64,000 nucleotides of DNA. Origin: Longimicrobiales bacterium (GTDB taxonomy: Bacteria; Gemmatimonadota; Gemmatimonadetes; Longimicrobiales; Gaopeijiaceae). The first letter of the stretch is position 1. Each line of letters begins with the position of its first letter. Under the pieces are notes generated by a model, which made no database searches, was not told the origin of the DNA, and saw only the letters and a list, made by a program, of their open reading frames with translations. Made by a program: the position numbers and the translations under genes. Shown piece after piece: positions 49,174-60,476 of the stretch. Location of the stretch: contig OZ241892.1 in assembly GCA_965203485.1 (NCBI GenBank), positions 1,856,001-1,920,000 of the forward strand, read 5' to 3'.

Positions 49174-49644
49174 GTGAGCGCGAAGACAAGACCATCCAGA
49201 CGGCGGGCGGCGACTTTGGTCGCGGTGGCGGCGTTGTTGCCGCTGGGGGGCGCGTGCGATTCCCTCATCTTGCGCAGCGAGCCCGAGGCGGCCCGCATCC
49301 GGATCGGCAGCCCGGACGTGGAGACGGTCATTGTCGTCACTGCCAAGCGGTTCGCCTACGAACGGGACCCCGACTGCGCGGAGTGCCCGCCAGTCGTTAG
49401 GCCGGTCAACAGCGACACGCTGACGGCGTCGGTGCCGTTCGACCGGACCTACGCGCTGGACTCCCGACTCCAGTTCTTCGCGGAAACGTACGCCACCGGA
49501 ACCGAGCCGGTCACCTTGTCGATGACGGCGTACGTGGACGGCACCGAGTGGTCGCGCAGCACACGCGTCTTGCGGCCCCGGAACGAGAGCGGCGAGCCCG
49601 AGACGATTCAGTTCGTGTACGAGTACAGCCGGGCCAATCGCTGA
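49174..49644 (+). CDS. Hypothetical lipoprotein with a CxxC motif
   Basis: AGGAGG ribosome-binding site before GTG; lipobox GGAC; DPDCAECPP. Confidence 0.7.
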   Translation: MSAKTRPSRRRAATLVAVAALLPLGGACDSLILRSEPEAARIRIGSPDVETVIVVTAKRFAYERDPDCAECPPVVRPVNSDTLTASVPFDRTYALDSRLQFFAETYATGTEPVTLSMTAYVDGTEWSRSTRVLRPRNESGEPETIQFVYEYSRANR

Positions 49645-50834
49645 GGCTCCTGGGCCCGTCCGCGCTGGCGTTCTGTCGGAGCGCGGCGCTCTGCGCGGTT
49701 GCGTCGGCCTGCAACGCCTTGCCCCCGTTCGCGGAGGCCGATCCGGGCCTGCCGTTGCCCGACGTTTCGGCGGCCGAACTCGAGGCGTTCGCCGCAGGCC
49801 AGGCGCTGTTCAACCGGCCGTTCACGCCCGAGGAGGGCCTGGGGCCGGTCTTCAACCAAGACAGGTGCGGGTCCTGCCACGACTTGCCCACGAGCGGCGG
49901 CCACGGCGCCGAACCGGTCACCCAAGTGAGCCGCTTCGACCCGTTGCAGGGGTGCTCCGTGTTGCCGGAACTTGGCGGCGGCCTGCTGCAGCAGGTCGTC
50001 ACGCGGCGGGCACGGCGTCTGGGCGTACGACCCGAAACGATTCCCACCGGCGCCACCGAGTCGTCCGAAATCCGGGCGCCGGCGATCTACGGTCTGGGCC
50101 TCGTCGAGGTAATCCCTGAAGCCGACCTGCTGGCCGCCGCCGATCCCGACGACGCCGACGGCGACGGCATTTCCGGGCGGCCCAACTTGGACGCCGACGG
50201 GCGGATCGGCCGGTTCGGGCGCAAGGCCCGTCATGCGACGCTGCGCGGATTCGTGGAAGAGGCTCTGCGAGTCGAAATGGGGCTGACGACGCCCGGCCAT
50301 CCCCGCGAGGAGCGGCCCGGGGGGCGGCCTCTCCCCGCCGGAGCCGACGTCGCCGACGATCCCGAGACGGGAGAAGCCCAACTCCAGCTCCTGGTCGACT
50401 ACGTCCGCTTTCTGGCGCCGCCCCGAAGGCGCCTTCCAAAGCAACGCCAAGCGCGGGCCGACGTCGCCGAGGGCGAGCGAGTCTTCAGCGCGGCGGGGTG
50501 CGCGACTTGCCACGTCCCCTCGTTCGACACGCCCGCCGACGGCCCGGCCGCCTTGCGCGGCCAGCGTTTTCGCCTCTACTCCGACCTCTTGCTTCACGAC
50601 ATGGGCCCGGAACTGGCCGGCCCCTGTGCCCCGGGGACGACGCCGACGGAGTGGAAGACGGCGCGCTTGGTGGGCTTGGGACTGCGCTTCGACTTTCTCC
50701 ACGACGGCAGGGCCCAGAGCATTGCGGACGCGATCATGCTGCACGGAGGCGAGGCGGCGGCGGCGCGGGACGCCTTCCGGCGACTGTCCGGCGACGCCCG
50801 AAGGCGCCTGCTCAGCTTCCTGAAGTCCTTGTAG
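49641..50834 (+). CDS. Di-haem oxidoreductase (DHOR-family) lipoprotein 1; start uncertain
   Basis: Two haem c motifs (CGSCH, CATCH); GLGP.FN, DPDDADGDGISGR, GRFGRKA, YSDLLLHDMG, LHDGRA. Confidence 0.87.
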   Translation: MRLLGPSALAFCRSAALCAVASACNALPPFAEADPGLPLPDVSAAELEAFAAGQALFNRPFTPEEGLGPVFNQDRCGSCHDLPTSGGHGAEPVTQVSRFDPLQGCSVLPELGGGLLQQVVTRRARRLGVRPETIPTGATESSEIRAPAIYGLGLVEVIPEADLLAAADPDDADGDGISGRPNLDADGRIGRFGRKARHATLRGFVEEALRVEMGLTTPGHPREERPGGRPLPAGADVADDPETGEAQLQLLVDYVRFLAPPRRRLPKQRQARADVAEGERVFSAAGCATCHVPSFDTPADGPAALRGQRFRLYSDLLLHDMGPELAGPCAPGTTPTEWKTARLVGLGLRFDFLHDGRAQSIADAIMLHGGEAAAARDAFRRLSGDARRRLLSFLKSL

Positions 50835-50975
50835 CCCATCGGCGATTCCGGGCATCAATCAAGACAAGGACGAACGCCCTCGTTCCCCGGAAAACGCGGA
50901 CTCGCCGGCGGCGCTTCGAGGGAGCGGAAACGTCGAGCGCGCCCCGCCGTCGCGCATGAAGCGACGCATACGCAC

Positions 50976-58258: not shown

Positions 58259-58265
58259 GGCCGCT

Positions 58266-60476
58266 CTACCGCGACACCATGTACGTCGCCTTCACCACCA
58301 GCCGCCGTGTCATGCGCAGGTCCGGCGAAACGTCGTCGCGGCGAAGCTCGTCGTACGCCACGTAGACGTCGCTGCCCGCCGCGTACGTGTAGCGCAACCG
58401 GGCGCTCGCGCCCAACTGGCCGGTGAGCGAGTTGTACTGGGCGATCGAGCGCAGGGTCGTGGAGGGCGAGATCGCGAAGTCCAGCCGCAGCGACGCCAAG
58501 TCGACCTGAAACGCGCCGCCCGGAAGCGACACGTCGTTGCGCGAGTACCCGGCCTCGACGGAGAACTGGTCGGTCAGGCGCCCGCCCAAGCTGGCGCTCG
58601 CGTTGCTTCGCGTGCCGCCGAAGAACGTCTGCGGCTGGTAGGCCGCACCGTAGTAGACGCGCCGCGCCGGATTGCTGTCGAACGACACCCGCCACTGGCC
58701 GAAGTCGTAGTCGCCCGCCGGAATCTCCACGCCGTTCAAGACGAAGGGAACGGGGAGCCGCTCGAAGTAGTCGTTGTACCAGACGTTCAGATAAGCGCCG
58801 TTGTCGAAGCGCGTGCCGACCATGTAGTGCCAGCGCCGCGACAGGAGGCGCCCGTTCTGGTCGGTCGTGTTCGTCAGATTCACCATCGGCGACATGACGC
58901 GCACGCCCCAGCGGCCCGGCCTCGGGCTGCGCTCCAGGTGAAGCTTGGACACGCGGATGCCCGCCCGCGGCAGAAAGCCGACTTCGGGGTTGAAGTCGTC
59001 GCCGAAGCTGGCGAACTCGCCGTAGACTCGCCAACGGTCGTCCAGCCAGGTCGCGTTCAGGTAGCTGCCGGTCTCGCTCCGGGTCGCGCCGGGCGTCTGG
59101 GTGCGGGCCAGGAAGCCCGTGACGGCGAGCGCGGGGTGCGGAGCCAGCGCCACGTCGGCCGCGTAGGTGCGGTTGAAGCGCGGACCGCCCGTCTCCGCTC
59201 GATTCACGAAGAGGCCGCCCACGCGCGAGCGGGAGAAGACGCGGCGGCCGTAGCGGGCCACGAAGAAGTTCTCGCCCGGCCGGCCGCTCGCGTCGTCCGT
59301 CTGCACGTCCAGCAACGCCAAGTCGTGCCGGCCCAGCCTGCCCGTCAGGCGCGCCCCGCCGACGATGGGGACGGTCTCGCCCGTTTCGGAGATGCCGATC
59401 CGCCGCGTGAAGAACAGGTCCGCCAAGCGGTTGAACGGGGTGACGGAACCGACGTTGAACTGGCCGGCGTTTTCCAGGAAGAAGTCTCGCTTCTCGGGAA
59501 AGAAGAGCGGGAAGCGGGTGAGGTTGACCTGCTCGTCGTCCACCTCCGCTTGGGCGAAGTCGGTGTTCAGGGTGAGATCGAGGTTCACGCCGGGCGCGAT
59601 GCCGTACTTGACGTCGAGGCCGGCGTCGCGGTCGAAGGCGCCCTCGGTTCCGCCGCCGAGCGCCGACGCCTGGCTGGCGCCGCCCGTCACGAACGGCGTG
59701 ACTCGCAGGTCCAGTCCCCGGTTCAGCGATTCCAAGCCGCTCAGCGTCCCGGCCAAGCTCACGCGCGTGATGCCGTACGCCTTCGGCACCGGCGCCCAGA
59801 ACGACTGCTCGTTGATCGCCGCGACGTTGCGCATGACGTTGAAGCCCCAGTCCTGCGCGCCGGCGTCCGGAAAGCGCAGGGTCACCACGGGGATCGCGAT
59901 CTCGGCCGCCCATCCCTCGGGAACGATCGCCGCCGCCACGTGCCACACGCCGTCCCAGTCGCGGTTGATGTTGGACGTGGACAGGCCGAAGCGGCCGCCT
60001 TCCCCCTCGTTGAAGATTTGCTGGTCCAGCTTCGCCCCCAGCGGGTTGGTCGCGAACATGTACGCGGAGCGCGAGTCCTTGAAGGTGTCGAATACGATCT
60101 GGACGTTGTCCTCCTCGAGGATGCGCTCCGAGTCGCGCCGCATCTCCGTCGCCGTCGGAACGTTGGAATCGTAGGCCGTGATGCCCAGATAGATCGTCTC
60201 CGAGTCGTAGAGGACGCGCACCTCCGTGCGTTGCGTCGCCGGCTCCCCCTCGCGAGGCTCCTGTTGCACGAACGCGTCCATGCGGCCCGCGCGGCGCCAA
60301 GCTTCCTCGTCGAGCTTGGCGTCCAAGACCGGCGGAGAGTTCGCGAGCGCCGCGCCCGCTCGATACAGCCGCCAGCCTTCCTGCGGGGACTCGGCCGCCA
60401 GACCGGCCTCGCACGCGACGGACGCAAGAACGACGCTCGCCCAGAACCGGACCGCCCGCGATCCGAGCCGCGCCAG
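58266..60476 (-). CDS. CBM9-like plus DUF5916 outer-membrane protein; start uncertain
   Basis: P.LD.KLDE..W, T.VRVLYD..TIY, W.AEIAIP..TLRF, NTDFAQAEVD...NLTRFPLFFPEKRDFFLE; C-terminal VVKATY. Confidence 0.85.
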   Translation of the reverse strand: MARLGSRAVRFWASVVLASVACEAGLAAESPQEGWRLYRAGAALANSPPVLDAKLDEEAWRRAGRMDAFVQQEPREGEPATQRTEVRVLYDSETIYLGITAYDSNVPTATEMRRDSERILEEDNVQIVFDTFKDSRSAYMFATNPLGAKLDQQIFNEGEGGRFGLSTSNINRDWDGVWHVAAAIVPEGWAAEIAIPVVTLRFPDAGAQDWGFNVMRNVAAINEQSFWAPVPKAYGITRVSLAGTLSGLESLNRGLDLRVTPFVTGGASQASALGGGTEGAFDRDAGLDVKYGIAPGVNLDLTLNTDFAQAEVDDEQVNLTRFPLFFPEKRDFFLENAGQFNVGSVTPFNRLADLFFTRRIGISETGETVPIVGGARLTGRLGRHDLALLDVQTDDASGRPGENFFVARYGRRVFSRSRVGGLFVNRAETGGPRFNRTYAADVALAPHPALAVTGFLARTQTPGATRSETGSYLNATWLDDRWRVYGEFASFGDDFNPEVGFLPRAGIRVSKLHLERSPRPGRWGVRVMSPMVNLTNTTDQNGRLLSRRWHYMVGTRFDNGAYLNVWYNDYFERLPVPFVLNGVEIPAGDYDFGQWRVSFDSNPARRVYYGAAYQPQTFFGGTRSNASASLGGRLTDQFSVEAGYSRNDVSLPGGAFQVDLASLRLDFAISPSTTLRSIAQYNSLTGQLGASARLRYTYAAGSDVYVAYDELRRDDVSPDLRMTRRLVVKATYMVSR

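Follow-up and report, generated by a model that had tools for sequence, protein, structure and literature searches.

Conserved linkage of di-haem DHOR lipoproteins with a putatively peptide-importing SusC/SusD pair in Longimicrobiales

What do two enzymes of a haem protein family tied, in the literature found, to iron-uptake operons contribute to an outer-membrane importer of the SusC/SusD type? The question is raised by a locus at positions 49,174 to 60,476 of a 64,000-nucleotide window (the whole stretch of DNA analysed; contig OZ241892.1, positions 1,856,001 to 1,920,000) in a Longimicrobiales bacterium of the phylum Gemmatimonadota, whose genome (G000) is a single contig of 3.56 Mb and 95% complete. 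Here, two di-haem oxidoreductases (DHOR1 and DHOR2) flank a SusC/SusD pair (SusCD) within a conserved cassette of six genes that extends from a small lipoprotein to a parvulin-type protein. Tentatively, with a probability of roughly 0.38, we read SusCD as a likely peptide importer and the DHORs as likely oxidative maturation enzymes of envelope proteins, not as metal-release factors. The genes and motifs concerned are as follows.

49174..49644, forward strand: small lipoprotein of 156 amino acids with lipobox Cys28, unnamed family
49641..50834, forward strand: DHOR1, di-haem c-type lipoprotein (PF06537) with an extra cysteine pair besides its two CxxCH motifs
51045..52364, reverse strand: SusD lid lipoprotein (PF07980)
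52398..55379, reverse strand: SusC/RagA-type TonB-dependent transporter of 993 amino acids with a long plug loop (TIGR04056)
52506..52514, reverse strand: Cys956-x-Cys958 near the SusC C-terminus (44/44 clade rows, 0/6 outgroup rows)
54702..54707, reverse strand: adjacent Cys225-Cys226 at the SusC plug loop (44/44 clade rows, 0/6 outgroup rows)
55533..56771, reverse strand: DHOR2, di-haem c-type lipoprotein (PF06537), start overlapping the parvulin stop
56768..58144, reverse strand: parvulin-type (SurA/PrsA-like) lipoprotein (PF00639), start uncertain, longest open reading frame from 58258
58266 to ~60476, reverse strand: CBM9_1/DUF5916 protein, a co-oriented neighbour outside the conserved cassette

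All gene positions and their order stand as given in the initial annotation, and searches with hidden Markov models confirmed its domain assignments, including those of the parvulin and the CBM9_1/DUF5916 protein. Both DHORs match PF06537 (E values of 1.5e-44 and 2.9e-39; 152.8 and 135.3 bits against a gathering score of 22), and SusD matches PF07980 (46 bits against 23.1). SusC matches TIGR04056 (373.6 bits against a cut-off of 368.25) and the Pfam plug and barrel models, which places it among the SusC proteins with a 22-stranded barrel; its gene is co-oriented with susD across a gap of 33 nt. The genome encodes seven full-length SusC proteins, and the best matches of the present one among named records are from Longimicrobiales and Gemmatimonadota bins. 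DHOR1 and DHOR2 are the sole DHOR genes of the genome.

The linkage between DHORs and susCD is real and conserved. A susD orthologue is present in 49 of 250 family genomes, and its surroundings were read in 42 of them, in stretches of up to 20 kb per locus (40 kb for G020); the seven susD-positive genomes outside the reading are G015, G022, G055, G067, G093, G142, and G233. A DHOR lies within the stretch at 37 of the 42 orthologous loci, so that the synteny proposed for this locus holds and the contrary outcome, a transporter unlinked to DHOR genes in other genomes, did not occur. Of the five loci without a DHOR, two are on short contigs, two carry SusD proteins that are among the most divergent, and one belongs to a genome with scattered modules (G074). 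No DHOR was found at 56 non-orthologous susC loci used as a control, many of which have short flanks. At the level of genomes, a DHOR at E<1e-80 is present in 46 of 50 susD-positive but only 19 of 201 susD-negative genomes, by a hand count in which related genomes are not independent. The linkage extends across several rearrangements and to a second family outside the order: in G386, parvulin and DHOR2 precede susCD, with a dipeptidyl peptidase IV (DPP-IV) and then a DHOR downstream, and in G312, also from a family outside the order, a DHOR and a DPP-IV follow susD. Two DHORs occur at 27 of the 42 loci, where they bracket susCD in 20 cases and lie on one side in 7; the bracketing seen in the window is one of several orders.

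The boundaries of the cassette are evident from two genomes of the same genus. In G001, the block from lipoprotein to parvulin is located 0.7 Mb from the flanks, which retain the CBM9/DUF5916 gene; in G002, which is a single contig, the flanks are intact and the parvulin is kept, while the small lipoprotein, DHOR1, susD, susC, and DHOR2 are absent. Together, the relocation and the loss delimit a conserved six-gene cassette that spans 49174 to ~58140. The co-oriented run from the CBM9/DUF5916 gene to susD noted in the initial annotation is correct in its orientation, but the CBM9/DUF5916 gene, of which the genome has five other homologues, does not belong to the conserved unit (2/42 loci). Recurrent neighbours are the small lipoprotein (33/42), the parvulin (24), a barrel-less CarboxypepD_reg–plug protein (23), a GldG-like ABC gene (17), DUF4399 (11), DPP-IV (10), a trypsin-like protein (8), and DUF1028 (7). 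The short barrel-less proteins, which consist of CarboxypepD_reg and a TonB plug, recur after susD (L033:6111-6890 and 22 other loci).

The partners of the DHORs fall into two sub-modules, one formed by the small lipoprotein and DHOR1 beside susD, the other by the parvulin and DHOR2, frequently accompanied by DUF4399 and a GldAFG-like ABC system. DHOR2 comes after the parvulin, and in G020 the two form an in-frame fusion. The array DUF4399–parvulin–DHOR2–gldAFG–DUF4340 is intact away from the importer in G074, G235, and G070, and in G116 the same module is nearly intact with susCD inserted. The matches of the ABC genes to GldA and GldF score below the cut-off; in the present genome, the GldAFG-like ABC and DUF4340 operon, which usually follows DHOR2, is located ~0.95 Mb away (G000:C1:2864442-2869102; L224). 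The active-site motif of the parvulin appears degenerate in this genome.

DHOR1 is coupled to the small lipoprotein as initially annotated: its start is probably a CTG that overlaps the upstream TGA stop (49641-49644; the alternative is a GTG at 49548), and a CTGA or TTGA overlap is found at 10 of 31 lipoprotein–DHOR junctions. The ‘CxxC’ assigned to the lipoprotein did not stand as a motif. The family comprises 420 cluster representatives at E<=0.001 and has no sequence match in Pfam or the PDB; the cysteine pair (Cys68/Cys71 here) varies in spacing from 2 to 7, is absent from 17 of 46 locus copies, and is lacking in 131 of the best 150 homologues among the 420, which indicates a small lipoprotein without a redox CxxC. 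A thioredoxin-like oxidoreductase was ruled out, with Thioredoxin_2 matching marginally in one of 33 members (E value of 0.019). The predicted complex of DHOR1 with the small lipoprotein scored 0.07, which allows no verdict and is not used as evidence.

Each DHOR carries two CxxCH motifs, a DxDxDG loop, and a cysteine at the end of its signal peptide, as initially annotated, but the DxDxDG loop is no special feature, as it is found also in ordinary DHORs. DHOR1 and DHOR2 share 47–50% identity and fall into separate clades in a tree of 98 rows, with 30 rows in the DHOR1 clade (SH-aLRT 99) and 29 in the DHOR2 clade (SH-aLRT 96); the remainder comprises a third clade (D3; 19 rows), 6 unplaced rows, and two outgroups (14 rows). 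Six cysteines are present in all 78 ingroup DHORs scored and four in all 13 scored outgroup members (seven rows that lack the anchor motif were left out of the scoring). On this alignment, the SusCD-type DHORs constitute a six-cysteine subfamily, marked by one extra cysteine pair. Further DHOR copies adjoin a second, distant SusCD at 12 of the 16 loci read, and the 17 six-cysteine loci outside the order include 8 with SusC or SusD and 3 with another TonB-dependent receptor.

The model of DHOR1 (pLDDT 96) has the two-domain di-haem fold of CcP and MauG (Z 14.3–16.1; root-mean-square deviation of 3.2–4.6 Å over 227–263 residues; next match Z 8.8), with MauG, the MbnH-type structure 6e1c, and BthA matched at Z 14–15. 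At the sequence level, neither DHOR matches the CCP_MauG Pfam domain at E<=0.01, and a sequence search found no solved structure of a DHOR (PF06537/DUF1111). Genes for cytochrome c assembly are present in the genome.

The D3 clade of DHORs adjoins a second SusCD clade (~30% identical; L090-L105, L200, L205, L206, L208, L210), and its loci also carry the small lipoprotein, plug proteins that lack a barrel (as many as four or five in succession), and often a propeller-amidohydrolase. Outgroup DHORs are found in loci that resemble DHOR–Rieske–porin operons, some with multicopper oxidase and ZIP genes, and a DHOR locus on a Bacteroidota plasmid is similar. The DHORs of Proteobacteria adjoin imelysins, and DHOR–imelysin operons for iron uptake are described in the accessible parts of PMC3143127, 10.1101/072470, and PMC13066512; the portion available of PMC9638140 has a DHOR domain only within a xylanase.

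The connection to metals was pursued at the level of regulation. A palindrome, TTAGG-N4-CCTAA, emerged upstream of the outgroup DHORs; it resembles the DtxR/IdeR operator and looks like a metal-repressor operator of Gemmatimonadota. The box is present in 12 of 15 outgroup DHOR regions, a circular count because these are the discovery set (shuffled rate 0.04), and absent upstream of the genes linked to SusCD (0/44 susC, 0/30 lipoprotein, 0/22 parvulin, and 0/20 D3 regions). Across whole loci, sites with one mismatch number 3 in 975 kb, two of them inside the coding sequence of susC, versus 19 in 208 kb for the outgroup. The sole box of this genome directly precedes a gene of the DtxR family (G000:C1:820192), which supports the meaning of the motif but points to a small regulon in this genome. 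A Fur-box scan with a consensus sequence gave no enrichment in any set, control included, and is uninformative. Operons of the DHOR–Rieske–porin type with one or two boxes are L039, L042, L043, L045-L048, L106-L109, and L193.

SusC belongs to a clade with four invariant cysteines, an adjacent pair (CC) at the plug loop and a CxC near the C-terminus. All 44 rows gave Cys-Cys at the CC, with a script that would drop rows with an in-frame stop. Selenoprotein TonB-dependent receptors (CU, PCPU, FCYXU) were rejected as an assignment at 17–22 bits against cut-offs of 700–825; a selenoprotein receptor is listed in the accessible part of PMC13188914. The SusC model (pTM 0.83) has BT2264, RagA, and ButC as its top fold matches at 17–18% identity, with a TM score of 0.8 to 5fq6 and 6sln, and its confidence drops in the plug loop (pLDDT<50 at 102-109). 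In an alignment, this loop exceeds that of BT2264 in length and that of RagA by a wide margin. According to the portion available of PMC7782687, the long plug loop of BT2264 can contact the ligand, and Bt1762 contacts its ligand through a vicinal disulfide. The invariant Cys150/Cys435 pair of SusD is present also in other SusD of the genome. In a quick tree with midpoint root, the deepest branch of the SusC clade, mostly Gemmatimonadaceae, has DPP-IV after susD and no DHOR. Cysteine pairs were rejected as a predictor of a neighbouring DHOR, since nearly all SusC of Gemmatimonadota carry paired cysteines, and a role of DHORs as substitutes for an absent disulfide system became less likely, with DsbB not found in the genome but VKOR present. 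Among relatives, L125 has two CC-type susCD pairs with DPP-IV between them, L056 and L057 (G249, G254) have a tandem-duplicated susD after a single susC, and L089 and L123 (G227 and a relative) encode SusC of the clade with extra CC and CxC motifs (10–11 cysteines) in loci without a DHOR.

The cargo of SusCD would probably be peptides. This is suggested by the linkage to DPP-IV, by peptidase-like neighbours, by the lack of a recurring glycoside hydrolase, and by the fold matches to BT2264, RagA, and ButC. DPP-IV follows susD in 6 of 8 loci of Gemmatimonadaceae and Marinimicrobia and in 3 of 3 loci of family f5, and full-length copies retain the GHSGGG, D.NV, and His catalytic motifs. Peptidase-like genes are present in 24 of the 42 orthologous loci, so that the lack of degrading enzymes seen here is a local feature. 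The absence of a glycoside hydrolase, sulfatase, or regulator from positions 49174-60476, correctly noted in the initial annotation, was confirmed by a Pfam scan. No glycoside hydrolase, lyase, or sulfatase was found in the window or among the recurring neighbours scanned, with singleton neighbours scanned only in part. In the present genome, the DPP-IV, trypsin-like, DUF1028, DUF4399, and Gld-like genes are located elsewhere.

In the preferred reading, SusD would cap SusC, and TonB would power the uptake of oligopeptides, which DPP-IV-type peptidases, encoded in the locus of many relatives and elsewhere in this genome, would trim. The plug CC and the C-terminal CxC would likely form disulfides at the cargo cavity. 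Like MauG and MbnH, each DHOR, with its two c-haems, would draw on either peroxide or oxygen to oxidise a client protein that its partner presents. For DHOR2, this would take place next to the parvulin chaperone while the client folds or is exported; DHOR1 would act on the small lipoprotein or the SusD lid. A maturation role is suggested by the parvulin–DHOR2 fusion in G020, by a module that stays intact when split from the importer, by the fold matches to MauG, MbnH, and BthA, and by the precedent of MbnH, a di-haem enzyme that modifies its partner beside a TonB-dependent transporter (PMC11951088 and PMC3621798, in the parts accessible). Modification of the transporter by the haem proteins was a side-suggestion of the initial annotation; with partner proteins included, it fits the data best.

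Several observations weigh against this combination. DPP-IV occurs at just 10 of the 42 loci (f1) and is not encoded in the window, and a structural ranking at 17–18% identity is weak evidence of cargo. Paired cysteines of other kinds are common throughout the SusC and SusD of the phylum, and VKOR could provide for disulfide formation in general, which makes disulfides the plain reading of CC and CxC. The CC/CxC SusC occurs without a linked DHOR in Gemmatimonadaceae, and a close DHOR is absent from 6 of 8 f5 genomes with such a SusC, which indicates that DHORs are not required for making the disulfides of SusC. Conversely, a TonB-dependent transporter is lacking in the vicinity of 6 of the 17 six-cysteine DHOR loci outside the order, and the loss of five genes in G002 represents one contiguous event. 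The canonical Trp of GRFGWKA, a putative counterpart of the inter-haem Trp of MauG, is kept in only 1 of 63 scored six-cysteine DHORs and mostly replaced by Arg. In a weak alignment, the His of HGGE, which is invariant, falls close to the Met ligand of CcP, so that the second haem may be His/His; together with the loss of the Trp, this would sit poorly with radical chemistry of the MauG type. BthA, in the part of PMC6405878 available, also lacks an inter-haem Trp. A bolder version appears quite improbable. In it, the DHORs would be MauG-like maturases or redox switches dedicated to the importer, which oxidise its plug CC and its barrel CxC or introduce a new protein-derived cross-link; SusCD would thereby be gated by redox state, and the six-cysteine subfamily would be the first of the DHOR branches to have exchanged iron uptake for the modification of proteins.

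The same features can be accommodated in other ways. The loss of the canonical Trp, the possible His/His haem, and the CcP-like fold would suit DHORs that oxidise imported molecules, such as modified peptides, amines, or thiols, or that remove peroxide and pass on electrons, with no protein being modified. Such DHORs would occupy the place of the hydrolases in other SusCD loci, and the third six-cysteine clade beside a different SusCD (12/16 loci), often with a propeller-amidohydrolase, is in line with this; however, it does not explain why DHOR2 is fused to a folding chaperone and constantly paired with that chaperone and an ABC system, and the recurring genes of the loci scanned include neither a Rieske protein nor a cytochrome that could accept electrons, so that we regard it as possible but unlikely. 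The initial annotation had favoured a metal, thiol, or metallophore cargo. In its strongest form, SusCD would take up metal-loaded peptides or chelates and the DHORs would release the metal by redox chemistry, their ancestral job. This would agree with the iron loci of other DHORs, with the Rieske, porin-like, multicopper oxidase, and ZIP genes around sister DHORs of the phylum, with four invariant SusC cysteines that could bind a soft metal, and with the His-rich DUF4399 in 11 of 42 loci. Yet the DtxR-type box is lacking although the genome has a repressor with one box before its own gene, an imelysin (PF09375) was not found in the 95%-complete genome, there are no iron genes among the recurring neighbours scanned, and the small lipoprotein is not thioredoxin-like. 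Moreover, CC and CxC persist where the partner is DPP-IV, and the vicinal disulfide of Bt1762 is a ligand-contact surface (PMC7782687, in part). A metal importer is therefore rather improbable, and the proposed cargo was not borne out.

A different kind of objection is that lipoprotein–DHOR1, parvulin–DHOR2–Gld ABC, and susCD are merely co-inherited operons of the envelope without a common mechanism. The modules of G074 all lie 40–120 kb apart, the DHOR2 module of G235 and G070 is located elsewhere, the genes occupy both strands, the importers of f5 do without DHORs, and G142 and G227 retain the lipoprotein without a DHOR. By contrast, the linkage persists through at least four gene orders and a divergence of SusC to 45–55%, genomes with split modules still retain all of them, DHOR, lipoprotein, and plug genes recur beside the second, distant SusCD clade, and the 56 other susC loci lack a DHOR. 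A loose cluster is accordingly improbable.

Each part of the cassette is of a known kind, and its layout parallels MbnT–MbnP–MbnH. The small accessory lipoproteins of BT2261-2264 have a counterpart at this locus. Like RagAB of Porphyromonas gingivalis and BT2261-2264 of Bacteroides thetaiotaomicron, the transporter has a SusC barrel, a plug, an N-terminal extension, and a SusD lid, and it shares the long plug loop with BT2264; unlike those systems, it belongs to another phylum, shares only 17–18% identity with them, and has the invariant CC and CxC and the linked di-haem enzymes, parvulin, and Gld-like ABC. The gene context of BthA of Burkholderia is of a phosphatase type, as opposed to the SusCD context here. 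BthA resembles the DHORs in its CcP/MauG fold (Z 14.3), the lack of an inter-haem Trp, and an extra conserved disulfide, but has a Tyr ligand where the DHORs have a probable His ligand (PMC6405878, in part). RagAB imports oligopeptides, according to the accessible part of 10.1101/755678. In MbnT–MbnP–MbnH/MauG, a TonB-dependent transporter likewise lies beside a di-haem enzyme of the CcP/MauG fold and a partner protein (PMC11951088, PMC3621798, in part); here, by contrast, the DHORs are not of the CCP_MauG Pfam family, there is a SusD lid and a second enzyme, the locus has no copper or methanobactin genes, and the partner is not Trp-rich. The NCBIfam models of MbnH and MbnP matched neither DHOR nor the small lipoprotein. 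With the imelysin–DUF1111(DHOR)–DUF1513 operons and the DHOR–Rieske–porin loci, the cassette shares the DHOR family, both CxxCH, the DxDxDG, LLHD, and HGGE motifs, and a lipoprotein beside an outer-membrane channel; it differs in lacking an imelysin, a Rieske protein, a porin, and a DtxR-type box, and in the extra cysteine pair (78/78 versus 0/13).

A literature search on DHORs, on SusC/SusD of Gemmatimonadota, on Longimicrobiales, and on the partner families, with supplements and most subscription papers outside its coverage, found no description of the cassette; SusC is unmentioned in the accessible part of PMC10581226. The six-cysteine DHORs would represent a subfamily in which the metal-repressor box has been lost and the association with a chaperone, a small lipoprotein, and SusCD has become fixed, and these partners provide named candidate clients for direct assay. 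For an enzyme family that has mainly been connected with iron uptake, the locus is a lead open to testing, and it indicates a likely peptide-feeding route in uncultured Gemmatimonadota, whose representatives here are genome bins and for which we infer both cargo and chemistry.

A scan for promoters and terminators and a search of Rfam yielded nothing. Of the other genes in the window, an M20 amidohydrolase (~60595-62220; TIGR01891 over the cut-off) is divergent from the CBM9/DUF5916 gene, remains with the flanks, and occurs at none of the 42 orthologous loci. An open reading frame at 44510-47578 encodes a methyltransferase of 1022 amino acids that resembles restriction-modification enzymes and has close paralogues in G001 and G002.

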